Below are positions 1-48,774 of a DNA stretch of 48,774 nucleotides, one piece after another. A program made the translations under genes and the position numbers. Each line of letters begins with the position of its first letter. Position 1 is the stretch's first letter. Location: the IMG/VR virus record IMGVR_UViG_2909267149_000001. The stretch is one strand, 5' to 3'. The stretch comes from a virus. Taxonomy: Duplodnaviria; Heunggongvirae; Uroviricota; Caudoviricetes. Below the pieces are notes generated by a model. The model searched no databases. It was not told the origin of the DNA and saw only the letters and a program-made list of their open reading frames with translations.

Positions 1-837
1 ATGCCGTCTCTACGTTCAGCTTACGTTTGTAATTTGTCGCCGGAGTTCCAGCCTCCAAAGCACCATACGCACAAGCTGCCGCTGGTGTTATCTGATGCTT
101 TACAGCGCATTAATGGTCGTGATCTTACGTGTGAGGTTGCGTTCTACGTTAATCAACCGTCAGAGCGGAAACGCCGGATAAACGAGCATCGTCGTCGGGC
201 GATTAATGCTGTGATTGCTGCGATTTTGCACCATGTAAACATCATTTCTAAGCGGGTTCTGGCCAGTGCTGAGGCGTTGGCTGATTTTTGCGGCCTGTCT
301 ACCGTATCCGAAGCTGGGAACAAGTCTATAACGCGCTGTACAAGGGCGTTGTCGCAACTGAAAGAGTTAGGTTTTATTGATTATGAACGTCGCTGGGATC
401 GGGTGAATAAACAGTATTGGCCAGCGAAAATCGAGATTCGTGATCAACTGCTGGAAACAGTTGGTATTACTGAACAAGCATGGAGACGTGCGGTTAGCCA
501 GAAACTTAATTACTTCAATGCGAAGAATAGCGAACGGCTTAAAAAAGCGATAACGGAGGCTGATTATAAGCGTATTGTTATTCAGGAGCAGATGGAGAAT
601 GTATGGCGTCAGAGGAAGACGGCCAGAGAGATAAAGGCAAAACAGAAAGCAGCGGAGAGAGCTGCGCGTCTTGTTCAGGAAAAGGGAGAGGCCGAACTTC
701 GCCATCAAATCACTAGAGAGGTTAGCCAGGAATTTGCTGATGGCATGTATCCTGGTGCTGACCTTGCATATTTACGCTCCCTCGTTGAGCAGCGTTATAA
801 CAGGCTAAGAAAGACCTGGAAATCACTCCAACATTAA
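1..837 (+). CDS. repA: Plasmid replication initiator, IncFII RepA1-like
   Basis: 278-aa basic protein recalled as resembling IncFII RepA1 in architecture; followed by DnaA box and AT-rich region; ORF starts at window base 1 so the true start may be upstream. Confidence 0.55.
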   Translation: MPSLRSAYVCNLSPEFQPPKHHTHKLPLVLSDALQRINGRDLTCEVAFYVNQPSERKRRINEHRRRAINAVIAAILHHVNIISKRVLASAEALADFCGLSTVSEAGNKSITRCTRALSQLKELGFIDYERRWDRVNKQYWPAKIEIRDQLLETVGITEQAWRRAVSQKLNYFNAKNSERLKKAITEADYKRIVIQEQMENVWRQRKTAREIKAKQKAAERAARLVQEKGEAELRHQITREVSQEFADGMYPGADLAYLRSLVEQRYNRLRKTWKSLQH

Positions 838-840
838 CCC

Positions 841-1110
841 ACCTGAATGATGAATCCGGTTTTACCGGAGGATTATCTACGTCGCAATAAAATATCTGTT
901 CAAAAAACAATCTAAATTAATTTTCTCTAAACCTGAACACAGCAAAAATATCGCCTTTACAGGCATCGGCTAATAAAGTTATCCACAGTTTTGATATGTA
1001 TATGCAAATGGTTTTTTATAATAGATGCACTAAACAAATAAATGCAAAATCACTTTCTTTTATTAAAACTTTCTTTATTTAACTTACGCAGGCTTTGCCT
1101 GTGAATATGT
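841..1110. promoter_or_regulatory. Candidate vegetative origin (oriR-like AT-rich region downstream of repA)
   Basis: AT-rich tract directly after repA stop containing a consensus DnaA box. Confidence 0.45.
979..987 (+). promoter_or_regulatory. DnaA box TTATCCACA
   Basis: Exact 9-mer match to DnaA box consensus. Confidence 0.6.
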
Positions 1111-1480
1111 TCGCCCTTGCAGCGAGCTAAAGCTCGCGCCGGTTCGAGTCGCTACGCTCAAATATACCTCCTCCGGCACTTGCCGGAGGCATGGAGCAGC
1201 CTGATCATCCTTTTCGAAACGGCGCGTTTCGAACTATACAAAATCAATTTATATAAGGCCGAAATAAGGCCTACGGCCGGGCTTTGCAGGAGGAAGGGGC
1301 GAGCCTTATCAATAAACGTCGATAAATACGCACACAGTAGCCATCAGAACGCGATAAAACGTAAGAAACATCATTTCCTATTAGACATAGAAAACTTGTC
1401 TTATACGCAATGTAGTAAATTTCTATTGCCACATAGGAAAAGATTTCCTACCATCGTAGATATAATAAATGGAGATGGTT

Positions 1481-1768
1481 ATGGATAAAGATACTGTTTT
1501 AAAAATGTTGAATCCGGCTTGTTTAAAAAAAGCGGATGAATGGGAATCTCCTACATGTGGAGAAGTTCGGGCAGTCATTGGCCTGACCGGAATGAGCGGC
1601 TCGCAGTTGGCCAAAAAACTTGGCTTAAAAGATAGTCGCAATGTTCGCAACTGGCAGATGTTAAAGGAGTCCACATCCAGATCCAGCATTCCGTATGCAG
1701 CCTGGGCGCTGCTGTGTTACTTCGCTGGGTTAGGGTTAATCTTCATTGATAACAAAACAGATGTTTGA
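1481..1768 (+). CDS. Hypothetical small protein, possible HTH
   Basis: ORF with GGAG 5 nt upstream of ATG at 1481; the track start at 1469 is an in-frame alternative. Confidence 0.4.
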   Translation: MDKDTVLKMLNPACLKKADEWESPTCGEVRAVIGLTGMSGSQLAKKLGLKDSRNVRNWQMLKESTSRSSIPYAAWALLCYFAGLGLIFIDNKTDV

Positions 1769-1791
1769 AACATGCAAATATGAGGTTTGTT

Positions 1792-2055
1792 ATGGAACTT
1801 GTACGCAAAACACGCAAAGAGTTCTTGGACCTGTATCGCATGGGAGCTTTCACTTGTGTTGTGGCTACCCAGGACGAAGTGACAAAAAGCTGGCGGCTTT
1901 TTGCTCTCAATAAAAAAGGGATTGCCGTTTTCATTGAAAAAGCCCGTGGTGGTATCCGCGAATGGGCGGGATTGAATTATGTGGCTGATTTTTGCGCAGC
2001 TATGGGGATTCGTCGCTGGGAAGTCCATATGCCAGGAGTAAAGTCACAAAAATAG
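1792..2055 (+). CDS. Hypothetical protein
   Basis: ORF; GAGG 6 nt upstream of ATG at 1792; the track start at 1765 is a TTG. Confidence 0.4.
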   Translation: MELVRKTRKEFLDLYRMGAFTCVVATQDEVTKSWRLFALNKKGIAVFIEKARGGIREWAGLNYVADFCAAMGIRRWEVHMPGVKSQK

Positions 2056-2299
2056 GGCTTTCGCGTCGAAAATGAGGCGAAACTGAAAACGAGATTTCAT
2101 TAACAAATAAGCAACATAAAAAACGGTGGAAAACGCCCAGGAAAACATGATCTTTTGAGCGGATTTTTTAGATCCGACAATGAACGGTGATCCGGTGGTG
2201 CCGATAACGTCCATTATGTTAAATAGCCCCGTTTTTCTTGAAATTATAAATCACAGGTTATATAGTTAGTGATATAAACTACAGGTTATAGGATTGAGC

Positions 2300-2647
2300 A
2301 TGTGGACGGTACTTTTTAGCCAGCGATTTGACGACTGGCTAAATGAGCAAGAAGACGCTCTTCAGGAAAAGGTTTTGGCTGATTTGAAAAAGCTACAGGT
2401 TTACGGACCTGAGTTACCCAGGCCATATGCCGATACCGTAAAAGGTTCTCGGTACAAAAATATGAAAGAGCTTCGCGTTCAGTTTTCTGGCCGTCCGATA
2501 AGAGCCTTTTATGCGTTCGATCCGATTCGCCGGGCCATCGTTCTTTGTGCAGGAGACAAAAGTAACGATAAGCGGTTTTATGAAAAACTGGTGCGTATAG
2601 CTGAGGATGAGTTTGCAGCACATCTGAACACACTGGAGAGCAAGTAA
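2300..2647 (+). CDS. higB: Type II toxin, HigB-2/RelE-family (addiction-module killer protein)
   Basis: ~115-aa protein recalled as matching Gp49/HigB-2-like toxins; AGGA RBS before ATG 2300; 1-nt overlap with downstream XRE-HTH gene (toxin-first order typical of HigBA). Confidence 0.6.
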   Translation: MWTVLFSQRFDDWLNEQEDALQEKVLADLKKLQVYGPELPRPYADTVKGSRYKNMKELRVQFSGRPIRAFYAFDPIRRAIVLCAGDKSNDKRFYEKLVRIAEDEFAAHLNTLESK

Positions 2648-2946
2648 TGAGAACATTAGATGAGGCGATTGCCAGCCGTTCACCGGAAAGCCAGGCGCGA
2701 ATTAAAGAAATGGCAGATGAGATGATTCTTGAGGTCGGCTTGCAGATGATGCGTGAAGAACTCCAGTTATCACAAAAACAGGTTGCTGAGGCGATGGGTA
2801 TAAGCCAGCCAGCAGTAACAAAGCTGGAGCAGCGCGGAAATGATTTAAAGCTGGCGACATTAAAGCGTTACGTTGAAGCTATGGGAGGCAAATTAAGCCT
2901 GGATGTTGAGCTTCCCACAGGAAAACGAATAGCGTTTAACATCTGA
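2647..2946 (+). CDS. higA: Antitoxin HigA-like, XRE-family HTH
   Basis: 99-aa protein with HTH signature (LSQKQVAEAMGISQPAVTKLE); ATGA overlap with the toxin. Confidence 0.65.
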   Translation: MRTLDEAIASRSPESQARIKEMADEMILEVGLQMMREELQLSQKQVAEAMGISQPAVTKLEQRGNDLKLATLKRYVEAMGGKLSLDVELPTGKRIAFNI

Positions 2947-2988: not shown

Positions 2989-2992
2989 TGCT

Positions 2993-3109
2993 CATAGAAT
3001 TATATAATTATATATTTATATAAAAAGTGCTTTACAGGTGGGAAAAAAATTCCTAAGGTTATACCCGAAACCGAGCGATACCCGCCCTGGTTAAACCGGA
3101 GATAACCCG
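2993..3109 (+). promoter_or_regulatory. Repeated promoter-leader element, copy A (AT-rich palindrome, TTTACA-17bp-TAAGGT, conserved 5' UTR, GGAG SD)
   Basis: Near-identical to copies at 12450-12575 and 19477-19593; ends at the ATG of the 3110 ORF. Confidence 0.6.
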
Positions 3110-3490
3110 ATGAGCATGATTAAAATCCGCAAAAACGCTTTCCTTAAAATTCAAACTATCCTGGCTGGTTCTGTTGGCGTGATTTGCCGTTCTTCCTCAA
3201 GCCGCATCGATGACTGCTACGATGATGAGTATCGTGTGTCCTCATGCGATGAGGCTTTAACCTGGCTGAAGGAGAATCAGGAACGTGCCCAGGTATATCT
3301 GGAAACAGAGAACGGCAATCAGATGCTGCGTATTAGCGGTCGTTATGGATTTGAAACTACATTCATGGCCTATTTTAATCAGGCTTACTTTGACAAGGAG
3401 TTGGCCTGGTACACTGATCGCATGAGCAAAAGCGAGCCAGCCCCGATTACACCGCCGAACAATAAACCATTTTTATTCCTCGTTAAGTAA
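3110..3490 (+). CDS. Hypothetical protein driven by repeated promoter element
   Basis: 126-aa ORF immediately after the conserved leader and SD. Confidence 0.5.
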   Translation: MSMIKIRKNAFLKIQTILAGSVGVICRSSSSRIDDCYDDEYRVSSCDEALTWLKENQERAQVYLETENGNQMLRISGRYGFETTFMAYFNQAYFDKELAWYTDRMSKSEPAPITPPNNKPFLFLVK

Positions 3491-5202: not shown

Positions 5203-6345
5203 TTATGGTCTGCTTTTCTGTGCCAGCTTATCAGCACATGTTTTTATCAGATCCTGTAGTGTCCTGGCTGGCAGGTTTGCATCCAGTACGCTGAGTATGC
5301 TGTTGTGATCAGCCTGGTCGACTACTTTGCCTGTCGGTGGTAGTAGCTTGAGCTGAGGATTCAGGTTTTCGTCAAAGCTGATAAGTGCTCTGGCGTTTCT
5401 GAGCAGATCAAGAAGTAAGGCTGATATCACATTTTCCTGAGTCATTGCTGGCAGACTTAGCGCCGCTTTGGTTTTCCCTGTTGCCTTGTCAAACTCCTTG
5501 ATTAGTTCCTTCCTGTAGTTCGGTTCCGTTAATAGCCGATTATGCTCTGTTGCCGCGCGGATAATCGTTTTTTCCTGGTACAGTCGTTTAGCCAGATCGC
5601 GCTCGTACTGTGTTTTTAACACGCTGCTGATAGCGTTAAAGGCTTCAATGTAGGCCAGCTTGATATCCTTCACGCCTGGACCGTCGATACTTTCCATGAG
5701 CAAGGTAAATCCGTCTTTTGTCATGCGATAGATTGTTATTTCGCGGTCGCTTCCTTCCAACGGTCGTTGCTCTTTAAAGAAATGACGCGCCGCAGCTGTG
5801 CGAGGAATGCGTAACGCATCGATGGCCATAACGATGGAATTGTTTGTGGTGCTGAATGCCTGGGCAACATCGGCTGAGGTTGTGAGTGGCTCGTTGTTGC
5901 ACACTTTAATGTAAAACATTGGTTTGGCGTTGAGCGTATCGACAACCTCACGAGCATTGTTTGGTGAGACGGTTACGGTCGCGGCCGTTTGTGCGTTCTG
6001 GTTGAAATAGCAGTCTTCCAGTTTTTCGAACACATCCCAAGCCTGATCGGTTTCGAGCATTTTGGCGTGACGGGCTGCTCCGTGTTCGGTCCAGAGAATT
6101 AGGGAGCGGGCATTTTTACCAACTAACCCGATTGTTTCAGGTCTGTTCTTGAACTCGCGTAATTCGTTTTTTTCAATTTTAAAGTAATGCTTTCCGGCTA
6201 TGAATCGCGTCGTGTTGTTCAGAAAGTTATCAGAAATGTTTTTGATTTTTGTTCCGTATAACTGCGCCAGAAGTTCACTAGTGATAACGGGGATCTGGTT
6301 ATGCAGGATAGGCTGTAGGGTGTTAACGGTCGGAAGCGTTTTCAT
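5203..6345 (-). CDS. Phage antirepressor (Ant-like; KilA-N/ORF6N-like N-terminus and Rha-like regulatory domain)
   Basis: 380-aa protein with motifs recalled from antirepressor families; GGAGG RBS; translationally coupled to an upstream small ORF. Confidence 0.55.
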   Translation of the reverse strand: MKTLPTVNTLQPILHNQIPVITSELLAQLYGTKIKNISDNFLNNTTRFIAGKHYFKIEKNELREFKNRPETIGLVGKNARSLILWTEHGAARHAKMLETDQAWDVFEKLEDCYFNQNAQTAATVTVSPNNAREVVDTLNAKPMFYIKVCNNEPLTTSADVAQAFSTTNNSIVMAIDALRIPRTAAARHFFKEQRPLEGSDREITIYRMTKDGFTLLMESIDGPGVKDIKLAYIEAFNAISSVLKTQYERDLAKRLYQEKTIIRAATEHNRLLTEPNYRKELIKEFDKATGKTKAALSLPAMTQENVISALLLDLLRNARALISFDENLNPQLKLLPPTGKVVDQADHNSILSVLDANLPARTLQDLIKTCADKLAQKSRP

Positions 6346-6533
6346 TTTGTACCTCCCATAACTACTTTGGTTACGAGGGAGATTTTTGCGTCAGAAACAG
6401 CGTTATCGTTGCTGGCGATGCGCATAGCTTCGCGCTCGATGATTTCAGCCAGGCGGAGTTTATCGGCGTATGAGGCTTTCTTGAGAAGGATCTTTACGAG
6501 GTTGACGTAATAGTCATGGGGTAAGTTTGTCAT
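6342..6533 (-). CDS. Small protein translationally coupled to the antirepressor (icd-like position)
   Basis: 63-aa ORF whose TGA stop overlaps the antirepressor ATG (ATGA). Confidence 0.4.
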   Translation of the reverse strand: MTNLPHDYYVNLVKILLKKASYADKLRLAEIIEREAMRIASNDNAVSDAKISLVTKVVMGGTK

Positions 6534-7418
6534 GGTGATAGTTCCCTTAAAGGTTAAGGATACTCACCACCGTCTGGTTCCAATCATTGGGTGGTGAGAC
6601 GTACAGGGTTGGAACTACCGGTCACCATGGAATCCGGCGAGTCTTACGACTCCCCCGCACGCCCCACCATAATTTGGGTGTAGCAGTGCTTTACGCATAA
6701 AAAAACCGCTAACGCGGTATGCGCCATGATGATTATCGGGGTTCCAATCCCGGCCGTAGATTTTGCTACGGCTCGGAAAGTGTCCACCAATGGCGCATTC
6801 ATGTCAATACGGCGGGATTTTAACAGAGACAACCACATAGCGTGGGTTTATTGGTAGGCAGAAACAAAAAAACCGCCCTATTGAGGACGGTTCTTTCGTG
6901 CTGATCGGATTCGCGGTCCTTTCAGCATTACGTTGTTGTATAAACAACCACGCAAGCACAAGCAGCAAGTTAATTTTACCCAAAAGGTAATAATAGTCCA
7001 CTATTATGCTTCAAAAAATTGTGGTTCTTGTTGTGCCTGCAAACTCACAGATTGTGGGTAGGTTACTGATTTTGTGAAAATAAACGAGTTTTTTCGTTTA
7101 ATTTCTTTCCTATTACTAATCTTAAAATAATCGTAAAATACCTGTGGACCTTCCCGCCGATTCGCACCCGGGCACCGACTTTAGGGGAGGATTCTCCGTT
7201 GCCGTACATGCAAGCACAAGCAGCCGTGCTTGCTCTCGCGTTGTTTTCGTCGGTGGGGATGCCGTGAAACGGCCTGTAAGGGCCATACAATGAAAAAATA
7301 CTGTATGTGTATTTTTATCGTTGTTACTGGAGCTTTGTTTACGCCACATGGGGAGGGTTGGAAGATTACTGATAACGCTCTGAATGTGACGATAAACATT
7401 AGCAGCAAGTAGCGATTA

Positions 7419-7442
7419 GGCCCCTTCGGGGGCCTTTTTTAT
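7419..7442 (+). terminator. Rho-independent terminator on plus strand
   Basis: aggccccttcgggggcct hairpin followed by T6. Confidence 0.6.
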
Positions 7443-7662: not shown

Positions 7663-7917
7663 TTACTTCTGGTTGTATTGAGCCTTGAGTAACTCAAAAG
7701 ATTTTGTCAGCACTTCTTTCAATGACATATCCATTGAGCTGGCGAACGTTTTGTACTCGCGTTTAAATTCAGGGTCGACGTTAAACGCCATTTGTGCCCC
7801 ACCTGATTTGGTTCTGGTTGGCGTTTCAGTCGGGTCGAAAACCTGCGGTTGTTCGATCGATGGCGGTACGCCTTTGCTGTTCTTCTTTGGTGGTTTTGAT
7901 GGTGCGGCCATGTGCAT
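7663..7917 (-). CDS. Small partition/regulatory protein, ParG-like (possible ribbon-helix-helix)
   Basis: 84-aa protein directly downstream of a ParA-type ATPase in the same operon; disordered basic N-terminus and structured C-terminus typical of ParG-like centromere binders. Confidence 0.45.
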   Translation of the reverse strand: MHMAAPSKPPKKNSKGVPPSIEQPQVFDPTETPTRTKSGGAQMAFNVDPEFKREYKTFASSMDMSLKEVLTKSFELLKAQYNQK

Positions 7918-7954
7918 CCCCTCTTATATAAATCTATAAAACTATAATTATATA

Positions 7955-8608
7955 TTACGCGGCAGTAGTCAGAGCCTCAAGCTGGTTGATAATCCCCTGA
8001 ATAACGTCGTCTGCCTTTTTGCGTGGCGCAACGTATGAGCACTCAATGAGGCTTAAGCCCTTATCCTGAGCTTTGCTCAGAGCTGGCTTGTGGGGAATGT
8101 ACTTATCGACAACAAAGTATGGCGTATTAGCCAGGTACTCTTGGGCTTCAATATAGTCAGCTTCGTTTTCAGCCGCGCCGGAAAACACCATGCAAATTTT
8201 CTTGATTGGTACACCCTTTTTAACGATGCCGTGAGCTGTGTTAACGGTGGTTTCCAGGTCATCGGTAGAGAATCTGGTTGGCAAAATAACCATATCCAGA
8301 AATTCAGAGAGCTTCGGTACTGATTCAGATGCGTAGGCACCGCCATCTACGATAACCAGGTCGTATACTTCTGATTCGATGATTTTCTGGACTTGTGATG
8401 GTGTGCCGCACGGCTGTGCCGCGATTGCTGGTTCGATATTGTTGGCCATTCTGCGTTGTACCCAACGCGTTACCGTTCCGTTAAGCACATCCATATCGAT
8501 CAGGCATACATTCCAGCCAGCCTTTGCATAAGCAACTGCTAAAGCACGAGCAATGGTTGATTTGGTTACGCCGCCTTTTCCGTTGAAAATACCTACAGAT
8601 ATAGTCAT
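7955..8608 (-). CDS. Partition ATPase, ParA/ParF family (Walker-type)
   Basis: Deviant Walker A GKGGVTKST near the N-terminus; start at 8608 preferred, 8623 is the alternative upstream ATG. Confidence 0.8.
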   Translation of the reverse strand: MTISVGIFNGKGGVTKSTIARALAVAYAKAGWNVCLIDMDVLNGTVTRWVQRRMANNIEPAIAAQPCGTPSQVQKIIESEVYDLVIVDGGAYASESVPKLSEFLDMVILPTRFSTDDLETTVNTAHGIVKKGVPIKKICMVFSGAAENEADYIEAQEYLANTPYFVVDKYIPHKPALSKAQDKGLSLIECSYVAPRKKADDVIQGIINQLEALTTAA

Positions 8609-8623
8609 TTGTCGAGACTCCAT

Positions 8624-8758
8624 GTGTTTGATTATATAATTCTATAAATCTATATTTATAGAATGAGGTAAGCATAACCAACTTTTTGGCGGATGAAAAG
8701 CGTTTTATATAATTATATAAATCTATAATCATATAAGCGGGCGTTAGCCCGCTTGCAG
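8624..8758. repeat. AT-rich repeat array upstream of the partition operon (candidate centromere/operator)
   Basis: Two blocks of tatataattatataaatctata-type repeats containing the TATAATTATA palindrome. Confidence 0.5.
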
Positions 8759-9225: not shown

Positions 9226-9882
9226 TCATAACCAGTTGACAACACTAACTACGCGGCCAAGAACTTTATAACGCTTAAATTCCTCGTTATTCAGATGCTT
9301 AGTGTTCATTTCAGCATCCCTTTCGGTTGACAGCATAACAGCATTGTCACCCGGTATGACTCTACAGTGCCTCAAAACAACCAGGCCATTTCTGTCTTCA
9401 AGGGCATAGATCCCCTCATGAATCTCTGTATCGTCTGTATTAATCAGGACTTGGGAGCCAGGGGATATTGTTGGTGACATTAACTCATCGTTGCTCTGGA
9501 GAACTGACAGAGACGATGGGTTGATGTTCTTGCTTCGTAGAATCTCCTGTTCTATCGCCAGCACTGGCTTTTCTCCGGCGTGCGATGCTATGTCATTTTT
9601 TATAGCTACAAGCCCAGGAATAACAGGAGCGTTAGTATTCTGGGGTGGGAACGGGTTATCTGTTAAGCACGCGATATAAGGCGCTGATGCTTTCAGGGCG
9701 TGCGCGATTTTCTTGATGGCAGGTATAGATGGTTGTCTTAATCCGGCCTCATAGTTCTGCAAGGTGCTTAAGCCTATTCCAGTGACTTGCTGGAGATCTC
9801 CGGCAGTCATGCCGGATTGTTTCCGTAGAGTCTGAATGCGCAGACCTATTTCTTTCTTGATGTTCTCGTCGTTGCTTTTCAT
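9226..9882 (-). CDS. CI-like repressor (N-terminal XRE HTH, C-terminal S24 LexA-like peptidase domain)
   Basis: 218 aa; N-terminal HTH; C-terminal domain with candidate Ser (LMSPTISPGS) and Lys (YKVLGR) dyad; divergent from a Cro-like gene across an operator region. Confidence 0.8.
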   Translation of the reverse strand: MKSNDENIKKEIGLRIQTLRKQSGMTAGDLQQVTGIGLSTLQNYEAGLRQPSIPAIKKIAHALKASAPYIACLTDNPFPPQNTNAPVIPGLVAIKNDIASHAGEKPVLAIEQEILRSKNINPSSLSVLQSNDELMSPTISPGSQVLINTDDTEIHEGIYALEDRNGLVVLRHCRVIPGDNAVMLSTERDAEMNTKHLNNEEFKRYKVLGRVVSVVNWL

Positions 9883-36510: not shown

Positions 36511-39303
36511 ATGGCCAGCAATAAGAACTTTAAGCTGGCTTTTGAAATTGGCGGCAAAGTTGCCGCCTCTCTCCCCAAAAGTTTTACTACAGCTAATCAG
36601 GCTGTTGCTAAATTAAATGCCGAGCTTGCTGGATTAACGAAAGAACATGGGGAAATTCAAAAGCTACAATCTGTAAAAGTAAAGGTTGGACAGACTGCCC
36701 TCGAATATCATAAAGCTGCCGCTCGCGTTGAAGAGTTACAGAAGCAAATAAAAAACACGGCCAATCCAACCAGAGCGATGCTTCGTGACTTTGAGAAGGC
36801 AAAAACACATTCATCGAATTTACGAGCATCACTACGTTCTCAGCGTGAAGAACTGGCCGCTTTAAAGTCTGCCTATCAGGGAGCTGATACATCTGCCAGA
36901 GCTTTGGCCTCAAGAGAGAAAGAGCTTAAAGCCAGCATTGATCGTAATCGTGAGGCTCAGGTCCGTAGCGTTGAGCAGGTTAACCGCTACAGAACGGCTT
37001 TGGCTTTAGCCAGAGCAAATGTTCAGCAAGTGAAAAAACAGCAGGAGGAACTTAACCGGGCATTAGAAAAACAACGTATTGATAAAATTAACAGCTATAA
37101 AAATGCGTTGGCTGAAGCACGGAAAAATGTTCTTGCAGTAAAACGTGCTCAGGAGGAGTTAAACCGCGCGTTGGAAAGGCAGCGTGAATTGAAGCGAGAG
37201 CATCTTGGTGAGGCAAAGAGTCAACTTGTAAGGTCAGGATTACAAACTGGTGCTGTAGCGGCTGGTGCATTTGCTGCTGCTAACAATGCAGCAAATTTCA
37301 ATCGTGAAAACAAAATGATTGGTCTTACGGCAGATATGAAGCCGGAAGAAGTTCAGGCGATGGGGCAGGCGATGCTTGTTACCGGAACGGCCACCAACCA
37401 GTTTGCATCTGATATTCAGGCCGCTCAGGGTTTTCTCGTCGCTGCTGGGCAGGATTATAAAGAGGCTCAGGCGAATCTACTAACTATTGGGCGAACAGCT
37501 ACAGCTACTGGCTCTGATATCCTCGATGTCTCGAAAGCATCATTTACATTAAGTGACTCATTGAAGATTGATCCATCTCAAATGAAGTCTGCAATGGGGA
37601 TTCTGGTTCAGGCAGGGAAAGAGGGAAACTTTGAATTTAAAGATATGGCCAAAAATCTTCCTGTGCTTGGTGCTCAGTTCCAGGCATTAAAAATGGGAGG
37701 TAAAGAAGCCGCCGCGACGATGGGGGCAGCTTTGCAGATAGCTCGCAAAGGTGCTGCAACTTCGGATGAGGCTGCTAATAATATGAACAACTTTTTGGCG
37801 AAAATACTTTCCCCTGAAACACTAAAAAAAGCAAAGAAAAATTTCGGTGTAGATTTATATAAAATTGTCACAACAGCGCAGAAAAAAGGGAAGAATCCAT
37901 TCGAAGCTGCAATGCATTCTGTCATGAAAATGACTAAGAACGGAGATCAGAAGTTACTTGGTGAGCTATTTGGCGATATGCAGGTTCAGAACTTTGTTCG
38001 TCCGATGATTCAAAACTGGAAGGAATACCAGAGAATCAAAGCAACATCTCTTGGTGCTGGAAGTGCTGTTATTGACCGCGATTTTGCCAACATAACGAAA
38101 GACAATGCGGAGCGATTGAAACAATTACGTATTCAGGCTAGCAATGCATCATTAAGTTTTGGTCAGGCCTTGCAACCTGCTTTGAATGCCGCGCTTAGTG
38201 TTTTGGTTCCGCTGATTACAAAAATTAGTGAATTTGTAGCTAACAACCCCAATTTTGTGTCTCAGGTTGTGATGGCGGCAGGTGCGTTTCTAACCATGAA
38301 AAGTGTGGTTATAGCGTGTAGGGTAGCTATGCTGGCTTTATCTGTAGCGACAAAGCTAACACCCTTCGGGTGGATTCAGATGGCTATATCTGCGCTGGTT
38401 GCCGCAGGAATATTGCTCTATCAGAACTGGGATAAGATCAGAGATTATGCTGTCAGAGTTTGGCCTTCTGTTAAGGAATATACAGTTAAATCGTTTGAAG
38501 CTATAAAAAACTTTATCTTAAACTTTGATCTCAATGGATGGATTATATCTATGTTTGGTAAAGCATGGGATTATCTTTCCAACATAAACTGGAGTTCGGC
38601 AGGAGTAAGAATTTACAGTACATTAATTAGTGCTTTTAAATGGATGTCTCCGCTTCCGTTCTTAATTAAAGCATTTAAACTTACAACAAATTACCTTTCT
38701 GGTATTAACTGGAGCGAAACAGGAAAGAAAATCATAGATACACTGGTATCTGTTTTTATGCGTTTTTCACCAGTTGGACTCTTTATAAGAGCATTCCAAT
38801 CTGTAACGGCTTATTTGTCTGGAATAAACTGGAGTGAGTCAGGCGCAAAAATAATTGAGACGTTAATCACTGGGATAAAATCAAAAGCAAATGCTTTAAT
38901 TAATGAAGTGAAAGGCGTTTTTTCTTCTGTACGTGAGTATTTACCGTTCTCTGACGCGAAAAAAGGTCCATTCTCACAGCTAACAAAGTCAGGTGGTGCA
39001 ATAATGACTACTCTGGCATCAGGCGTTAGCAGGAATAACAGCTTACAGAATGCAATAGCAACCAAGTTCGGGCAATCAAATTTATCACCTCACGGGATAT
39101 CTGCCGCCGGGACTTCTGGACCTCGCCAGAACGTTAATGCTGTGACTGGTGGAATAACCTATTCACCTGTAATCAATCTTCCGGCTGGTTCACCAAAGGA
39201 AACTGAGGCGGCAGCTAAAAGAGCATTAGATGCGGGATATTCTGATTTTGAGAAGAAATTGAGTGCTCATATGTTCCAACAACGGAGATTAAGTTTTGGA
39301 TGA
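36511..39303 (+). CDS. Tail tape measure protein
   Basis: 930 aa, coiled-coil N-terminal half, hydrophobic segments; canonical position. Confidence 0.85.
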   Translation: MASNKNFKLAFEIGGKVAASLPKSFTTANQAVAKLNAELAGLTKEHGEIQKLQSVKVKVGQTALEYHKAAARVEELQKQIKNTANPTRAMLRDFEKAKTHSSNLRASLRSQREELAALKSAYQGADTSARALASREKELKASIDRNREAQVRSVEQVNRYRTALALARANVQQVKKQQEELNRALEKQRIDKINSYKNALAEARKNVLAVKRAQEELNRALERQRELKREHLGEAKSQLVRSGLQTGAVAAGAFAAANNAANFNRENKMIGLTADMKPEEVQAMGQAMLVTGTATNQFASDIQAAQGFLVAAGQDYKEAQANLLTIGRTATATGSDILDVSKASFTLSDSLKIDPSQMKSAMGILVQAGKEGNFEFKDMAKNLPVLGAQFQALKMGGKEAAATMGAALQIARKGAATSDEAANNMNNFLAKILSPETLKKAKKNFGVDLYKIVTTAQKKGKNPFEAAMHSVMKMTKNGDQKLLGELFGDMQVQNFVRPMIQNWKEYQRIKATSLGAGSAVIDRDFANITKDNAERLKQLRIQASNASLSFGQALQPALNAALSVLVPLITKISEFVANNPNFVSQVVMAAGAFLTMKSVVIACRVAMLALSVATKLTPFGWIQMAISALVAAGILLYQNWDKIRDYAVRVWPSVKEYTVKSFEAIKNFILNFDLNGWIISMFGKAWDYLSNINWSSAGVRIYSTLISAFKWMSPLPFLIKAFKLTTNYLSGINWSETGKKIIDTLVSVFMRFSPVGLFIRAFQSVTAYLSGINWSESGAKIIETLITGIKSKANALINEVKGVFSSVREYLPFSDAKKGPFSQLTKSGGAIMTTLASGVSRNNSLQNAIATKFGQSNLSPHGISAAGTSGPRQNVNAVTGGITYSPVINLPAGSPKETEAAAKRALDAGYSDFEKKLSAHMFQQRRLSFG

Positions 39304-39514
39304 TTATAGAACGGTTCAAGGGGACTCATGGGATAGTATCGCGTTAAAGTTGTATGGTAATGAGTACCTGTCTTATCTTCTTATTGATGCTAATACTGAG
39401 CACCGCTTTACGGTGCTTTTTTCTGCGGGAATTATTCTTAAAGTTCCTGATGCTCCGGTTATGCCAATATCAGTAAACAATTTGCCTCCGTGGAGACGCA
39501 ATAGTGTTACGTAA
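39296..39514 (+). CDS. Tail protein X-like (LysM-like, P2 gpX family)
   Basis: 72-aa protein; GDSWDSIALKLYG resembles the gpX motif from memory. Confidence 0.45.
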   Translation: MDDYRTVQGDSWDSIALKLYGNEYLSYLLIDANTEHRFTVLFSAGIILKVPDAPVMPISVNNLPPWRRNSVT

Positions 39515-40505
39515 AACGCTTTTTGATGTTATATATCAGAATGTAAATATTACCGCTCATATGTCACCTGATGTTTTGTCAATGTCTTATACAGATAATG
39601 AAGATGGTCAGGTCGATGATATTTCTATTATATTAAAAAATGATGATGGGAAATGGTCTGGAGACTGGACACCTAAAAAGGGTGATTTTATTGATTTGAG
39701 CTTTAAGCCTATAAATCAAATCGTCCTTGAGTGCGGGAAATTCCAGGTAGATGGCATAACTTGCTCTGGACCACCTTCTGTTGTTGAGGTGACTGCTGTT
39801 TCTGTTCCTGTTTCATCAGGCATTAGACGTGATTTAAAAAGTAATGCATGGGAAAAAACAACTCTTAAAGATATAGCAACCTCTATAGCTAAATTAGCTA
39901 ACCTTGAACTGTTGTTTCTTATTGATGGTGATAGTAATCCATATTATGCGCGTGAAGATCAAATGGAGGAAAGCGATTTAAAATTTCTCCATCGACTATG
40001 CCAGGATGAAGGGGTGTCGTTAAAGGTCACTGATAGCCAATTAATAATATTTGCTCAAGAGATGTTTGAGCAAAAAGATCCTATCGCTACGCTTACGTTA
40101 GGTATTGATGAGATAATCAGATATAGCTTTAGCACACAATCTACAGATTTGTATAAAAGTTGCACGTGCAAATATCGCGTACCTAAAAAAAGAAAGTCGC
40201 TTTCGTATACTTGGGTAGATCCATCCGTAGAAGAAGGGTCGAATCTTAAGATAAGAAAACTGGTAGCTAATTTAGATGAAGCAAAACGTAAGGCAAAGGC
40301 TGCTTTGCGGCTTAAAAATAGATATCAAAATACAGGATCTTTAGTATTGGTTGGAGACACCAGATTGGTAGCTGGTGTAACTATAAATCTGGACGGATTC
40401 GGTTCATTTTCTGGAAAATATCTTATATCGAAAGCTGTGCATTCAATTGGGGCTAGTGGTTATACCACCTCGATTGATGTCCGAAGAGTAATTAATGGGT
40501 ATTAA
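39504..40505 (+). CDS. Tail/baseplate hub protein (P2 gpD-like)
   Basis: 333-aa protein after tape measure; GTG start with GGAG RBS. Confidence 0.65.
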   Translation: MLRKTLFDVIYQNVNITAHMSPDVLSMSYTDNEDGQVDDISIILKNDDGKWSGDWTPKKGDFIDLSFKPINQIVLECGKFQVDGITCSGPPSVVEVTAVSVPVSSGIRRDLKSNAWEKTTLKDIATSIAKLANLELLFLIDGDSNPYYAREDQMEESDLKFLHRLCQDEGVSLKVTDSQLIIFAQEMFEQKDPIATLTLGIDEIIRYSFSTQSTDLYKSCTCKYRVPKKRKSLSYTWVDPSVEEGSNLKIRKLVANLDEAKRKAKAALRLKNRYQNTGSLVLVGDTRLVAGVTINLDGFGSFSGKYLISKAVHSIGASGYTTSIDVRRVINGY

Positions 40506-40507
40506 TT

Positions 40508-41128
40508 ATGAATGATTTAGAAACATTATTACGTCAGACTATAAGAGTTGGCGTTGTTTCTGATATTGATGATGGTGATGTTACAGCAAGAGTTACTTTC
40601 GATGATCAGGATAACGTCACTTCGGCAAAGTTATCAGTTATTGTGAAAAATACGGATAAGAATGCTGATTACTGGATGCCAGATATTGGTGAGCAAGTTT
40701 TGTGTATCTTTCATCCCGCAGGGCCGCAACAAGGTTTTATTCTTGGTAGTTTTTATGATGAAACACAGAAGCCGCCATCTAATACTGTTAATAAACGCGT
40801 CATTAGATTTAATAACGGAACTCGTATTGAGGTAGACAGAGAATCTAATTTACTCCTTGTTGATGCTGTCGGAGATGTAACCGTTAAGGCTACAGGAACC
40901 GTAACTATTGATGCTCCAGAAACCATCATTACCGGAAATGCTACAGTTGAAGGATTACTAACCTTCAAAGGTGGAATGAAAGGATCTTCTGCTGGAGGTG
41001 TTGCAGCTACAATTTCTGGGGATGTTAAGGTTGTTGGTGGTGATATAGATGTTGATGGGATTAAATCTAAAGGCCACCATCACACGGCTCAGGGGGAATA
41101 CGCTCCGACAACGGAGGCTCAGGCATGA
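40508..41128 (+). CDS. Baseplate spike protein (P2 gpV / Mu gp45-like)
   Basis: 206-aa protein with OB-fold-like N-terminus and Gly-rich C-terminal region. Confidence 0.65.
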   Translation: MNDLETLLRQTIRVGVVSDIDDGDVTARVTFDDQDNVTSAKLSVIVKNTDKNADYWMPDIGEQVLCIFHPAGPQQGFILGSFYDETQKPPSNTVNKRVIRFNNGTRIEVDRESNLLLVDAVGDVTVKATGTVTIDAPETIITGNATVEGLLTFKGGMKGSSAGGVAATISGDVKVVGGDIDVDGIKSKGHHHTAQGEYAPTTEAQA

Positions 41129-41592
41129 TTGTGGGTATGCTTGGTACAATGCCTTTTGTTGCCTCATCAATAGTGGTGAATACGTTCAACAATTTTAAAA
41201 GGACGTCAAAGCGTCGTGTAGCGCGCCATGATGTTATTGGGCTTAAACCTGTTCTGGAGGATATAGGTCCAGATCTGGATGAAGTTAGTTTTAATATGCG
41301 GTTGGATACAACACTTGGCATTGTTCCATTGGCTGCGCTTTCATTACTTAGGACAATGCAATCAATTCAGGAAGTAAATCCTGTTGTAATTGGTATTCAG
41401 TATTTTGGTAATTTTATAATTACAGATATAGAGGAATCATGGACTTATTTCGGTCCAACTGGGAATCCACGAGTGATTATCGTCGGCATTAAATTACAGG
41501 AAGTCGGACAGACCTCTCTGAAAGAAGCATTAGTTGATATTGCTGGCAATATAGAGTCAAAAACTAGAAGTGCGTTAGGTAAATTATTATGA
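41125..41592 (+). CDS. Baseplate assembly protein (Mu gp46-like position)
   Basis: 155-aa ORF between the spike and gp25-like genes. Confidence 0.4.
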   Translation: MIVGMLGTMPFVASSIVVNTFNNFKRTSKRRVARHDVIGLKPVLEDIGPDLDEVSFNMRLDTTLGIVPLAALSLLRTMQSIQEVNPVVIGIQYFGNFIITDIEESWTYFGPTGNPRVIIVGIKLQEVGQTSLKEALVDIAGNIESKTRSALGKLL

Positions 41593-41909
41593 ATAATACG
41601 TTTACCATATCATCACCTTCTTACTCGATTGATTGGTCGCCCAAAACAGTTGTAGAAGAAGTTTTGCAAAATGTCTCTACTATTATTAATACTCAGATTG
41701 GCACTGTACCATATGCCAGAAAATTAGGAGTTAATTCAAGTCTTGTTGATAGCCCTAGCCCAATTTTTATTGCTACAGCAACACGAGAAATAATTCAAAA
41801 AATTAGTGAGTTTGAGCCTAGAGCGATTATCCATTCTGTTACTTTTGAAAGAACGGACGTTTCTGATGGTTTTATTAGGCCAAAACTTGTGATAGGAGTT
41901 AGAGAATGA
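41589..41909 (+). CDS. Baseplate wedge protein (gp25 / P2 gpW-like)
   Basis: 106-aa protein immediately before baseplate J. Confidence 0.65.
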   Translation: MNNTFTISSPSYSIDWSPKTVVEEVLQNVSTIINTQIGTVPYARKLGVNSSLVDSPSPIFIATATREIIQKISEFEPRAIIHSVTFERTDVSDGFIRPKLVIGVRE

Positions 41910-43030
41910 CGTTGCCGCGCGGTGGTTTGCCAGATATTACTTTCGCAGATTCTAACCCGACTGATATAACAACTCGTTCAATCAGGGCTTTTGAGAGTAT
42001 AACAGGTGAAACATTAGCACCTGCTGATCCACGTAGATTATTCATCTTGTCATTGTGTGAGATTATTATACAGCAAAGAAAAGCTATCGATTTTTCTGCA
42101 AAACAAAACCTTCTTACATATGGTGGGGGTGAATATCTCGACCATATAGGCTATCTGACGGATACGCCTAGGCTGGAAGCTCAATCTGCCTTGACTACAT
42201 TTGAGTTTAATCTGTCAACAAAATTATCGGGGATATATACAATACCTGCTGGCACTCAAATTTCAACTGGAAATAGTGTTATTTTCCAAACAGATGTTTT
42301 GTTGGAAATACCAGCTGGGAAAACAGTTGGTACAGTCTCAGGATATGCTGTTATACCTGGCTTATCGGGGAATGGATTTTTACCTGGGCAAATAAACGAG
42401 TTGGTGACTCCGTTGCCGTATGTTTCCAGCGTAAGGAATCTAACAACATCTAATTCTGGTGCTGATACAGAGTCAGATGATAATTATGCTGAAAGAATAA
42501 AACTGTCGCCGGAAAAACTGTCTACAGCAGGGCCGGAGGATTCTTATAAATATTGGACAAGAACAGCCAATCAGAATATAAAAGATGTGAATGTATATAC
42601 ACCATCGCCCGGAACTGTAGAAATCCGTTCTTTGTTAGAGAACGGGGATATACCTTCTGATGAACTATTAGAGCAGATAAATAGCGTTCTCTCTGCAACT
42701 AATATTCGACCATTCACAGATAAAGTTCTTGTTAAGAAACCAGAGAGCATTGAATACGATATAATAATTAAATACTGGATTAACTCATCGGACAAAAACA
42801 GAACAACGTTAATTCAAAGTGAGGTTGAGAAAGCTCTTGATGAGTATAAACAATGGCAACGTTCGGTTATGGGAAGAGATATAAATCCAGATGAAATTAT
42901 TCAACGTTTAAAAAATGCCGGGGCTAAAAGATTAGAAATATCAAGTCCTGTATTTACTGTAGTTGGAGAGACGCAGGTCGCCAGAGAGAGAAATATAAAT
43001 TGCCAGTATGCGGGGTTAGAGGATGGCTGA
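41906..43030 (+). CDS. Baseplate J-like protein
   Basis: 374-aa protein in conserved W-J-I order. Confidence 0.75.
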   Translation: MTLPRGGLPDITFADSNPTDITTRSIRAFESITGETLAPADPRRLFILSLCEIIIQQRKAIDFSAKQNLLTYGGGEYLDHIGYLTDTPRLEAQSALTTFEFNLSTKLSGIYTIPAGTQISTGNSVIFQTDVLLEIPAGKTVGTVSGYAVIPGLSGNGFLPGQINELVTPLPYVSSVRNLTTSNSGADTESDDNYAERIKLSPEKLSTAGPEDSYKYWTRTANQNIKDVNVYTPSPGTVEIRSLLENGDIPSDELLEQINSVLSATNIRPFTDKVLVKKPESIEYDIIIKYWINSSDKNRTTLIQSEVEKALDEYKQWQRSVMGRDINPDEIIQRLKNAGAKRLEISSPVFTVVGETQVARERNINCQYAGLEDG

Positions 43031-43604
43031 TATCTTTAATGTTAGCTTGTTGGATGTTTTACCTCCTAACTTAGCTAGAGATCCCAACGTGATAGCTATG
43101 TCGAAAGCTATTGATGATGAACTACAAGCAATTAACAATTTAATATATAAGACAGAAATATATAGCGTTGTTGATAACCTGGACTCAGTTGTTCTCGATC
43201 ATTTAGCTTGGCAATGGAATGCTGATACATGGAGGGATAGTTGGCCTGTATCGTTAAAGCGTTCTGTTTTTAAATCAATAATACGAACAAAGCGAATAAA
43301 GGGTACAAGGGCAGCGGTTGAAGATGTAGTAAATAGCTTGGGTGGAGAGGTAAACATAACAGAATGGTTTGAAACATCACCACCTGGCGAACCATATACA
43401 GCCTCAATTGTTGCTTCGATTAACTCTTTTGATGGTGCCGTTCCTTCGAAAGAGATGTTGGAAGATACGTTAAGAAGTATCAAGAGCGCAAAGTCGGCAA
43501 GAACATTATTTACATTTTCGCAAGCAGCCAATGTTTCTGGTGGTGTCGGTATTGTTGGTGCTTGTCAGCCTGTGTCTTATGTACGATTAATTGGCGAGTG
43601 CTAA
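43023..43604 (+). CDS. Baseplate/tail protein I-like (P2 gpI)
   Basis: 193-aa protein preceding the tail fibre gene. Confidence 0.65.
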   Translation: MADIFNVSLLDVLPPNLARDPNVIAMSKAIDDELQAINNLIYKTEIYSVVDNLDSVVLDHLAWQWNADTWRDSWPVSLKRSVFKSIIRTKRIKGTRAAVEDVVNSLGGEVNITEWFETSPPGEPYTASIVASINSFDGAVPSKEMLEDTLRSIKSAKSARTLFTFSQAANVSGGVGIVGACQPVSYVRLIGEC

Positions 43605-46796: not shown

Positions 46797-46797
46797 A

Positions 46798-47883
46798 TTA
46801 AACGCTCGCTACATTATACCAGGTGCCATTTATATACTTTTGAACGGGTCTGTAATAAACGCCCGCTATATTATCGGCAGAGTTGGACCCTGTATCCTGA
46901 ACATTAATACCAGACAATACATGACCTGACGGGCACTGGAAATTCCATGTTTGCCAGTTGTTCACTCCATAATATTGCTGTGAACCAAGTCGAACATCTT
47001 TCACATATCTGGAATCAAAATTGCCATAGTTGCCGGGAATAACTTGCGCACCGCAAAGCCAGTTTCCGTTATTATCCATGTACGCCTGACCATCGGTGCC
47101 ATTGGTTGTCCTTGAATTATTAATCATGTAGATGCCAAATTGCTTGTTCCCCAGTCCACCTATCATGAACTTGCGGTCGGCGTGATTCTGGCGAAGCAAC
47201 GCCTGAGCGCTATCAGTGTTAACTATATTTTTCCCAAAGATAGCGTTGTTATCGCGCATCTGAATCCACATACCATTACTGCTGTTAATAGCAAAACGGT
47301 CTGAAAGTGTCTCCCCTGAAACATTAAGACCACGCCCCATCGAAACAGCGCCAGTAGCGTTATTAATCCATAATGGCCTTAATCCGTTATAAGTCCCCAT
47401 GTTGTCACCGGAGTTTGTCAACATGAAGTATGTATTTGAACCATCATTACGAATAAAGAATCCGTAATTACCATAAGCAATACGTAGGCCGTTTGCTGAT
47501 TTTGATATGACTTCGCCATTTACAATGGCATTGACAAGAACATACAAAGCATCCCATTTAAGATTCATCAGGTCTTTTGTTGTGGTACTTTGTTTGCTTC
47601 TCCATTTGAAATATTCATTGCCGTTGTCGCCTGTCTCAAACCACATGTATGAATCAGTGTCACCATCGGCATCATTTTTAAATCCAATCTTCACCCAGTC
47701 AGTATTTCGAATCCAGGCAAGGATTGAGTCATTTTCAAAAGTAAGCCCACCGGACAAAGTATCGCCATTTTTTTGCACGGCGTTACCAGCCCTGTTTACC
47801 GTTTCCTGTAAACCGAGGTTTTTGCGAATTGCCTCTGTGTCGTCTGAACGATATTTTTTCCCGCTTTTAGCAACAATCGCGGT
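46798..47883 (-). CDS. Alternative tail-fibre variable C-terminal segment (Sv'), lacking its own start
   Basis: Minus-strand frame is open from 47883 through the crossover site (by my hand translation); ends [12 protein letters not shown], parallel to the plus-strand fibre C-terminus. Confidence 0.65.
47803..47828. promoter_or_regulatory. Inversion crossover site (gix/cix-like), right
   Basis: ttcctgtaaaccgaggtttttgcgaa, close to the Mu gix sequence from memory. Confidence 0.65.
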
Positions 47884-47892
47884 TTAGAAAGT

Positions 47893-48447
47893 ATGCAATA
47901 TGGTTATGCGAGGGTGTCAACTTTTGACCAGAATTTGGAATTACAATTGGAGGCGCTCAGGAGTTCAGGATGTGACCGGATTTTTGAAGATAAAATATCC
48001 GGTGCTAAATCAAAACGACCAGGACTTGATAAGCTACTGAAGGTGTTACGGCCGGGCGATACGGTTATTGTCTGGAAGCTGGACCGAATGGGGCGTTCTC
48101 TGATTCATCTTGTTGATTTACTAAACTATTTTTTATCAAACAACATTGAGTTTATTTCGATTACGGAAGGGATAAAAATTAGCACTTCAATTGGCCGCTT
48201 TGCCTACACGATGCTGAGTGCAGTCGCAGAGATGGAGCGGGAAAATATGATTGAAAGAACGCGTGCAGGATTGGCGGTGGCAAGGGCTAACGGCAGGATA
48301 GGAGGACGCCGCTCAAAATTGGCACCAGAGCAATGGGAACAGATCGGAAGGCTTATTGCGAATGGTGTTTCACGTAAGCGGATAGCGATTATCTTCGATG
48401 TTACCTTATCCACGCTTTACCGCAGGTTTCCGGCTGGGAATCATTGA
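47893..48447 (+). CDS. Serine DNA invertase, Gin/Cin/Hin/Pin family
   Basis: N-terminal YARVSTFDQ with catalytic Ser; C-terminal HTH; strong resemblance to Gin from memory; adjacent to the right crossover site. Confidence 0.9.
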   Translation: MQYGYARVSTFDQNLELQLEALRSSGCDRIFEDKISGAKSKRPGLDKLLKVLRPGDTVIVWKLDRMGRSLIHLVDLLNYFLSNNIEFISITEGIKISTSIGRFAYTMLSAVAEMERENMIERTRAGLAVARANGRIGGRRSKLAPEQWEQIGRLIANGVSRKRIAIIFDVTLSTLYRRFPAGNH

Positions 48448-48635
48448 CTGGAGTTAGGCCAGTAGTATGATGCTCGCAAAACGAGATCCAATTTAGATCC
48501 TTTTACTGGTGGATTATCGTTCGATCAGTGAGAGACTTCGTGCATGACCGAAAGTGTTGTGGTAGAGTTCTCTTAAAACCACGTAACGTGGTTATGATTG
48601 TGGGTGTCTGGTTGAAAAGTGACCAGATATGGAAA

Positions 48636-48665
48636 CAAAAAGCCCGCAGATAAATCTGCGGGCTT
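48636..48665 (-). terminator. Rho-independent terminator for a leftward transcript entering from beyond the window
   Basis: agcccgcagataaatctgcgggct hairpin followed by a T-run on the minus strand. Confidence 0.5.
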
Positions 48666-48774
48666 CTTGCGACATCCACGGAAAGGAAAACCAACAACTA
48701 ACCATGGGCGCCTCGACAACTCCCATTATACGTTGGTTTTCCGTGGACGCAAGAGCGAACATATGGATAGACCA

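Follow-up and report, generated by a model that had tools for sequence, protein, structure and literature searches.

The IMG/VR virus record IMGVR_UViG_2909267149_000001, a stretch of 48,774 nucleotides which we analysed over its whole length and refer to below as the window, carries the genes of a tailed phage together with those of a plasmid (Table 1). The phage component comprises a head and packaging module of the lambda type, a contractile tail of the P2 type, a lysis cassette, a tail-fibre locus with an invertible segment, a CI-like repressor and an immunity locus of the kind known from P1. The plasmid component comprises a gene for a RepA-type initiator with a predicted downstream origin, a ParA-type partition operon and a type II toxin-antitoxin pair. 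In view of this gene content, the closure of the molecule, its plasmid-only distribution, the inversion state of its fibre segment and its near-identity to records deposited as phages, all of which were observed directly, the window is very probably the complete genome of a temperate myovirus kept as a circular low-copy plasmid, i.e. a phage-plasmid.

Table 1. Features of the 48,774-bp window, in order of position except for repA and its leader, which are listed first (RHH, ribbon-helix-helix; HTH, helix-turn-helix; ORF, open reading frame; a dot marks features without strand).
Feature	Position	Strand	Components and remarks
repA	ATG 48763 or ATG 1 to 837, wrapping the window end	+	longest ORF starts at GTG 48619
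Candidate CopA/Inc-type antisense RNA over the repA leader	48629..48754	-	long stem-loop and intrinsic terminator
oriR-like origin (predicted)	979..1150	+	DnaA box TTATCCACA 979-987, GATGCAA repeats, AT-rich stretch, conserved GC hairpin
Type II toxin-antitoxin pair	2294..2946	+	HigB/Gp49-like toxin 2294-2647; HTH antitoxin 2647-2946
Cassette copy a	2992..3113	+	array 2992-3023; putative -35 TTTACA and -10 TAAGGT; ATG 3110
P1-type immI locus	5203..6772	-	isrK-like RNA 6772-6699; C4 6674-6587; 63-aa ORF 6533-6342; antirepressor 6345-5203
ryfA-family RNA	7144..7440	+	Rfam RF00126, 142 bits vs 80; region varies between relatives
Partition operon	7663..8623	-	ParA 8623-7955 (type Ib); ParG-like RHH protein 7917-7663
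Array	7924-7955	.	parA-parG intergenic space
Arrays flanking the par promoter	8632-8663 and 8705-8736 (region 8632..8736)	.	four units each
CI-like repressor	9226..9882	-	HTH_3 E 4.5e-11; Peptidase_S24 E 0.0018, below cut-off
Divergent cI/early promoter region	9921..10036	.	three CCACAnnnTGTGG palindromes at 9921, 10003, 10024
Early rightward operon	10056..16355	+	three unknown-function proteins, Ref nuclease, DUF1064, DUF3560, Ead/Ea22-like, others
Cassette copy b	12451..12580	+	array 12451-12490; predicted to drive DUF3560/primase-like gene 12576-13643
Array	13676-13715	.	isolated
Lysis cassette	16686..18216	+	two holins, GH108 endolysin, Rz-like spanin
Array	18340-18379	.	isolated, between lysis genes and tRNA-Met
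Cassette copy c	19476..19597	+	array 19476-19507; predicted to drive 19594 onwards
Lambda-type packaging and head	25796..32554	+	TerS, gpA TerL, DUF6148, lambda-family portal, ClpP-type protease, decoration protein, gpE capsid
Connectors and P2-type contractile tail/baseplate	32555..43604	+	sheath, FII tube, chaperone, tape measure, gpD, V, GpU-family, W-like, J, I
Tail fibre with invertible segment	43635..48447	.	alternative fibre C-termini and assembly genes, invertase
Serine invertase, Gin/Cin/Hin family	47893-48447		adjoins invertible segment

Closure, distribution and the virion module

A search of plasmid records with megablast returned the circular 49,989-bp Escherichia coli plasmid CP099184.1 (RHB21-E3-C02 unnamed3), which is 99.96% identical to the window. 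In the alignment, window 1-31862 corresponds to CP099184.1 18126-49989, window 31863-45003 to its positions 1-13141 and window 47808-48774 to its positions 17159-18125; hence, window base 48774 joins base 1 in the circular record, and the window was opened 12 nt within the annotated repA gene. The sole sequence of CP099184.1 that is absent from the window is 13435-15143 (1.7 kb), consisting of an insertion sequence (IS) of the IS3 family in the fibre gene and adjoining fibre sequence. This insertion and a flipped fibre segment are the only differences between what is otherwise the same element. The 48,774-bp window is an entire circular replicon, and, consequently, there is no flanking DNA in which an integrase could be hidden. 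Within it, none of the six-frame ORFs of at least 227 aa encodes an integrase, each falling into another family or lacking a match, and in the annotations of four close relatives by the Prokaryotic Genome Annotation Pipeline (PGAP) the invertase is the sole recombinase, besides the IS transposases in three of them. Thus, the proposal of a preliminary description that the window represents an extrachromosomal prophage devoid of an integrase, which was to be checked by the circularity of its source, is borne out by the abutting ends, with the circular record fully accounted for, as well as by the distribution and the phage-deposited relatives described below.

The backbone extending from the par locus through cI to the early genes is present in 65 of 5,426 complete E. 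coli genomes (~1.2%) when at least 80% coverage of window 6300-13700 is required, and in every case it resides on a plasmid of 46-57 kb. No chromosome of these 5,426 genomes has a copy; chromosomal matches cover at most 6% of the query and correspond to the C4/isrK region. The ParG-like protein is encoded in PLSDB by at least 62 plasmids from E. coli, Salmonella, Klebsiella and Serratia, which are circular and non-mobilizable and measure 44-94 kb (mostly 46-52 kb); E. fergusonii plasmid records are among the backbone matches, and Citrobacter is also a host of the family. The replicon is found in five separate assembly records of the strain ATCC 25922, which argues for its stable inheritance. 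The family member in that strain measures 48.4-48.5 kb, and one record, with 94,204 bp, has the appearance of a dimer or of two misassembled copies.

The 48.5-kb plasmid of ATCC 25922 (NZ_CP009073.1), pESBL3215 and p853EC2 match 91-93% of the window at ~98% identity and in the same gene order, differing in the islands at 3537-4111, 14366-16371, 20307-20599 and 20924-21691 and in the fibre C-termini. Also close are three Yersinia phage records, vB_YpM_39, vB_YpM_41 and vB_YpM_44 (OR545053-55; listed host Y. pestis EV76), whose identity to the window is ~98% across 57-90% of each of its halves and which share with it the gene order and the RepA, ParA, toxin-antitoxin and CI genes, along with structural genes of the same length. 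These records are the sole, and indirect, sign that the family may form infectious particles; they are annotated as nearly all hypothetical and are not called phage-plasmids.

The head, packaging, tail and lysis genes of the window are all full length, in keeping with an essentially complete temperate phage, and matches to the respective families were recovered for the lambda-type terminase, portal and capsid, for the contractile tail and for the fibre switch of the G-segment type (the name DUF6148 is taken from PGAP annotation). The tail had earlier been termed Mu/P2-like; its tube, sheath and baseplate proteins are of the P2 type, whereas the resemblance to Mu and P1 is limited to the fibre/invertase segment. 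There, the fibre gene extends into a 2.8-kb segment delimited by a pair of inverted gix-like sites, each of 26 bp (44983-45008 and 47803-47828), and carrying an alternative fibre C-terminus and an assembly gene on the opposite strand. This segment is 92-93% identical to the C-segment of P1 and the G-segment of Mu over ~2.5 kb. It lies in the opposite orientation in the near-identical CP099184.1, which implies that inversion is active or was so recently. By homology and anatomy, lytic growth would yield particles with a cos-packaged head of the lambda type and a contractile tail of the P2 type, and the Gin/Cin-type invertase would switch the fibres between two host-range specificities.

Plasmid maintenance and immunity

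The initiator matches the Pfam family IncFII_repA (PF02387; E 3e-44) and passes the cut-off of the NCBIfam model NF040977, RepA_IncFII_LM (233 bits against 70), but fails the canonical IncFII equivalogs (TIGR03474, 81.9 against 446.9 bits; PRK13750, 85 against 478). By these profiles it is a member of the IncFII/IncL-M family and not a canonical IncFII protein, such that the earlier designation of the replication module as IncFII-like holds at the family level alone. Its leader is covered by a candidate antisense RNA (120 nt; minimum free energy -63.6 kcal/mol, z = -7.9). In single-sequence folds the two-hairpin layout upstream of repA recurs in four diverged replicons with RepA proteins 32-85% identical, and the apical loop GUUGUCGAGGC is kept across these four replicons in the midst of unrelated stem sequences. 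The Rfam CopA model has no match in the window even at E-values up to 1, and RNAalifold recovers just the apical stem and the terminator, the outer stems having diverged beyond alignment. The RNA nonetheless has the appearance expected of a CopA/Inc-type antisense regulator. The predicted origin contains the single perfect DnaA box of the window, 142 bp past the repA stop. A lone 9-mer of this kind is not significant by itself (0.7 expected); however, the origin layout is kept 115-153 bp past the repA stop in five relatives (L004, which is the Serratia plasmid pJSRIV006_2, and L015, L018, L019 and L022) and is common to replicons with RepA as little as 32-85% identical. RepA would thus be expected to fire a downstream origin of the oriR type through the DnaA box, short repeats and AT-rich DNA, with its synthesis probably throttled by the countertranscribed two-hairpin RNA. 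The RepA family, the candidate countertranscript over the repA leader and the predicted downstream DnaA-box/AT-rich origin recall the IncFII (R1/R100) and IncL/M-IncB plasmids. The window differs from these in that no CopB homologue is named in any annotation, in addition to the equivalog and CopA results. Just upstream of the repA leader we also noticed a perfect palindrome, AACCACGTAACGTGGTT, at 48577-48593, with half-sites (AACCACA...TGTGGTT) similar to operators of the CI type, which hints at a possible influence of the phage repressor on plasmid replication.

The partition operon had been described as ParFG-like, and both of its products agree with this. ParA is a small protein of 222 aa with a P-loop at residues 10-20, a Pfam CbiA/ParA match and no N-terminal DNA-binding domain; it aligns to the NCBIfam model ParA_partition (10-211 of 203) and weakly to ParF (PDB 4dzz; E 3e-4). 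A scan of genome contigs with ParA recovered only unrelated ParA-like matches. The second, 84-aa protein has no Pfam or NCBIfam match. Nevertheless, a profile of nine members of its family retrieved ParG from the PDB (1P94; E 3.7e-4), along with other RHH proteins, and hhalign gave a probability of 89%. In an AlphaFold2 model residues 1-47 are disordered and helices at 49-61 and 64-83 are confident; this is a monomer model, in which the ribbon is not formed, built on a shallow alignment for which the homologue search gave only sequences at least 79% identical. The type Ib ParA probably works with this ParG-like RHH protein in segregation. Next to these genes in function stands the toxin-antitoxin pair, with a Pfam Gp49 match in the toxin (E 6e-23; named 'RelE/ParE family toxin' by PGAP in relatives) and an HTH_3 match in the antitoxin (E 4e-10). 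Accordingly, all four plasmid features given in the preliminary description, namely initiator, DnaA-box origin, ParA-type operon and toxin-antitoxin pair, could be located in the window. The locus of the ryfA-family RNA holds a 40-aa hydrophobic ORF (MKKYCMCIFIVVTGALF...) lacking a Pfam match and may encode a type I toxin adding to plasmid addiction; the HigBA-type pair, and possibly this locus too, would penalise plasmid loss. In ATCC 25922 an extra HTH gene is annotated between the immI and par loci.

The immunity region combines two layers. First, besides the three CCACAnnnTGTGG palindromes in the divergent promoter region, the motif recurs at 9170, 6833 and 7045, and the gene adjacent to cI as well as the antirepressor operon are preceded by such palindromes. 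With up to two mismatches there are 30 matches against 16.5 expected, and the sites with zero or one mismatch cluster in the immunity region. Second, the immI locus scores well above the Rfam thresholds for C4 (84 bits against 45) and isrK (72.5 against 50), and its 63-aa ORF overlaps by 4 nt the start of a gene for a 380-aa antirepressor with the Pfam domains ORF6N and Phage_pRha. On visual inspection, the loop of C4, CAUGGUGA, shows complementarity to UCACCAUG in the start region of the 63-aa ORF. As C4, a coupled ORF and an antirepressor together reproduce the logic of P1 immI, the earlier label of CI-type immunity is right about the repressor and incomplete about the system. The CI-like repressor would act on the CCACAnnnTGTGG operators, both those of the divergent early promoter and those ahead of the antirepressor operon, and translation of the antirepressor would additionally be gated by the C4 antisense RNA, as in P1 immI.

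Several observations weigh against the window being a functional temperate phage maintained as a low-copy plasmid. The C-terminal domain of CI falls under the Pfam S24 cut-off. No LexA box lies near the immunity region, the sole match being a chance hit inside a structural gene. Of recognisable lytic-replication genes (helicase, primase-polymerase, O/P-type) there is none besides the weak primase-like match of the DUF3560 protein, and no multimer-resolution system was identified in the window. A literature search found no publication for vB_YpM_39/41/44. Finally, copy control of the IncFII type is argued by analogy, because RepA fails the canonical cut-off and the Rfam CopA model does not match. 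A domesticated or defective phage-like plasmid that is stably inherited and no longer completes the lytic cycle would be in keeping with the facts that most family members are known solely as plasmids in assemblies, that some relatives have insertions in fibre or baseplate genes (IS3, IS2, TnpB/IS200) and that the LexA-box search yielded no induction signal. However, the window copy is free of IS, none of its ORFs for head, tail and lysis is truncated, their lengths being those found in vB_YpM_39/41/44, and inversion of the fibre segment is still going on among near-identical copies. We therefore regard such a loss of function as improbable for the window, although some of the IS-bearing relatives may be decaying copies. 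An integrated prophage or chromosomal segment with its integrase just beyond the window, for which nothing speaks but the a priori frequency of integrated prophages, is refuted by the closure, the ends being contiguous in a 49,989-bp circular record of which every part is accounted for, and is also at odds with the lack of the backbone in the chromosomes of the 5,426 complete E. coli genomes and of an integrase in any frame. The insertions in close relatives are placed as follows: an IS3-family element in the fibre gene of CP099184.1 (13557-14785), IS2 between the baseplate genes I and J of p853EC2 (16146-17374) and an IS200/IS605 element with TnpB in pESBL3215 (47378-49067).

Octanucleotide arrays and putative promoter-leader cassettes

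Arrays of four to five 8-bp units of the form nnnTATAA occur at exactly eight places, all within 2992-19507, where none is expected by chance. Three of them stand at the 5' end of a 122-nt sequence that is present in three copies (2992-3113, 12459-12580 and 19476-19597; 88-98% identical), each ending at an ATG. This repeat reads as a promoter-leader cassette, composed of a putative -35 element, a palindromic 17-bp spacer (GGGAAAAAAATTCC in copy a, GGGAAAAAATTTCC in copies b and c), a -10 element, a leader hairpin and a Shine-Dalgarno sequence. It is kept in the Serratia plasmid pJSRIV006_2, again in three copies (16933-17021, 19273-19361 and 26230-26318), and in metagenomic relatives, and two base pairs of the leader hairpin switch from AU to GC in a compensatory manner among relatives. 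The genes behind the cassettes are non-homologous between the E. coli and Serratia elements, and a PADLOC search of the cassette-driven and neighbouring genes detected nothing except a methyltransferase domain. We also considered the cassette copies as recombination junctions and rejected this for the close relatives: with the DUST filter off, the alignments with vB_YpM_39 and with the plasmid of ATCC 25922 continue across them without a break, and the BLAST breakpoints at 2988/2993 and 19597 are artefacts of low-complexity masking and of the joining of pieces around a three-copy repeat.

The arrays on either side of the par promoter are presumed to be the centromere and operator of the partition system, and the ParG-like protein most likely binds them. 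The two-array layout upstream of parA is seen in 11 of 11 relatives with a ParA at least 39% identical, and not in L024 (29%). Across twelve relatives representing five lineage types, the core of the array unit co-varies with the residues predicted to form the ribbon of the RHH protein, in the pairs QM(A/S)FNV with TATAA, QLLL(R/Q)L with (G/T)ATAT, xMNFN(V/M) with TTTA(A/T) and LVNFRW with GCTATAA, and the positional layout of the arrays is kept throughout in spite of these changes; this co-variation comes from few independent lineages, between which other proteins diverge too. From these regularities we infer that the arrays are sites of the ParG-like protein, acting as multiple centromeres and possibly as operators. 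Going a step further, and tentatively, since we would put it at somewhat short of an even chance, the ParG-like protein may be both the centromere binder and a genome-wide regulator, coupling the assembly of the partition complex with the expression of accessory or early genes. This would resemble omega of pSM19035 or KorB of RK2, although in the setting of a phage-plasmid chassis compatible with contractile and non-contractile tails alike. If the dispersed arrays are real sites of this kind, plasmid segregation would be linked to phage gene control in this family.

A less likely explanation, albeit one to be taken seriously, is that the arrays are UP-elements, curved DNA or sites of another regulator, be it host IHF, H-NS or Fis or a protein encoded by the element. 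The arrays are indeed extremely AT-rich, those of the cassettes occupy positions of roughly -40 to -75, a range in which UP-elements and activators operate, and CI and other proteins likewise diverge between the lineages with differing array sequences. On the other hand, neither the exact spacing of the units at 8 bp in groups of four to five, of which chance would produce none, nor the constant bracketing of the par promoter by two arrays, where type Ib centromeres lie, is readily accommodated by it. Moreover, the unit core shifts in step with the ribbon residues over the five lineage types, and CI has separate palindromic operators of its own.

Binding of the arrays by the ParG-like protein would have several parallels. 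Centromere sites are scattered through the genome of the phage-plasmid N15, and KorB of RK2 binds dispersed operators; the proteins concerned are large HTH-type ParB proteins, unlike the RHH protein of the window. The box of the TP228 partition site is ACTC, whereas that of the window is of the TATA type. The ParF-ParG system of TP228 is similar in its small ParA without an N-terminal HTH, in its RHH protein with a flexible basic N-tail and in an upstream centromere/operator made up of short boxes at 8-bp spacing (for parH, see PMC3130281). The homology to TP228 is distant for both proteins (E ~3e-4), and the window has arrays also at six places outside the par locus. The omega protein of pSM19035 is likewise an RHH ParB, with repeat arrays overlapping the copS, delta and omega promoters, and at least four contiguous repeats are needed there to activate ParA (PMC9499535). 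The arrays of the window, too, have four to five units and lie at several promoters, but their units are of 8 bp instead of 7 bp, and they belong to a Gram-negative phage-plasmid in which the sites are predicted from sequence.

Relationships to known elements and further genes

The preliminary description had suggested a comparison with phage-plasmids of the SSU5, P1 and N15 types. No kinship with these emerged beyond the fibre segment: in a megablast search of 50,697 phage records, P1, D6, Mu and D108 match just the ~2.5-kb fibre segment, and neither SSU5 nor N15 is among the matches listed. The resemblance to P1 is instead one of organization, in that both are plasmid prophages without integration, in which a C4 RNA controls (or, in the window, is predicted to control) an antirepressor through a coupled small ORF. 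The antirepressor of the window was assigned by its ORF6N and Rha domains. Both elements also have the invertible fibre segment with an adjacent serine invertase, as well as a Ref nuclease homologue. Against this, the window is half the size of P1 and lacks Cre/lox, and it has an IncFII-family RepA in place of the P1 RepA/iteron replicon, a type Ib ParA/RHH pair in place of type Ia ParA/ParB, HigBA in place of Phd-Doc, a CI-type repressor in place of C1, and a lambda-type head with a P2-type tail. Two further candidates for kinship were rejected: pSLy3, which belongs to the SSU5 supergroup and was unmatched in the phage-database searches, and the Yersinia phage vB_YpM_HQ103, described as a 'plasmid-like pseudolysogen', which is an unrelated 32-kb member of the Peduoviridae.

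A 48-kb E. coli myovirus type is absent from the published phage-plasmid groups (P1, N15, AB and five SSU5-related ones; PMC7969092, PMC12977533), the named types considered being P1, D6, N15, SSU5/pHCM2/pKpn/pSLy3/pMT1/pCAV and AB. Our literature search found no paper on the present family, which thus appears to be undescribed. The element is not new in itself, since it is essentially in GenBank as part of a well-populated family, which is, as far as we found, undescribed and unnamed, and phage-plasmids as such are familiar elements. There is growing appreciation that genes pass between phages and plasmids by way of phage-plasmids, the typing of which covers the P1, N15, SSU5-related and AB groups only. 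The present family adds a further and fairly common enterobacterial type that has gone unrecognised in plasmid annotation, and its presence in the quality-control strain ATCC 25922 offers a readily tractable experimental system.

The mosaic character posited for the window is most evident in comparison with the Serratia plasmid pJSRIV006_2 (NZ_CP074139.1). This plasmid has the same chassis in the same order, i.e. RepA, antirepressor, RHH protein, ParA, small protein, CI, three early proteins, Ref and DUF1064, with the same array-plus-cassette layout, proteins 27-56% identical and a repeat unit of the TTTA type. It combines this chassis with a PemK/MazF toxin-antitoxin pair, a tail that is lambda-like and non-contractile, and a gene in which protease and capsid are fused. 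The occurrence of the chassis with another tail indicates that the plasmid/immunity chassis and the virion module are separable units, and one chassis with different tails in E. coli and Serratia provides a clean case of module exchange.

Among the remaining genes, the first three proteins of the early operon match only PHROGs of unknown function, and the DUF3560 protein, placed by its Pfam domain, has a C-terminal match to a 'primase' PHROG (E 2e-37). A tRNA-Met (CAU; 18510-18585) and a methyltransferase of the MT-A70 family (18894-19481) lie between the lysis cassette and cassette copy c. Upstream of the terminase genes are three ParB_N/Srx-domain genes (21925-22548, 22542-23921 and 25215-25805), which are distinct from the partition ParB, may act in packaging, DNA modification or anti-restriction, and one of which is fused to a methyltransferase domain.

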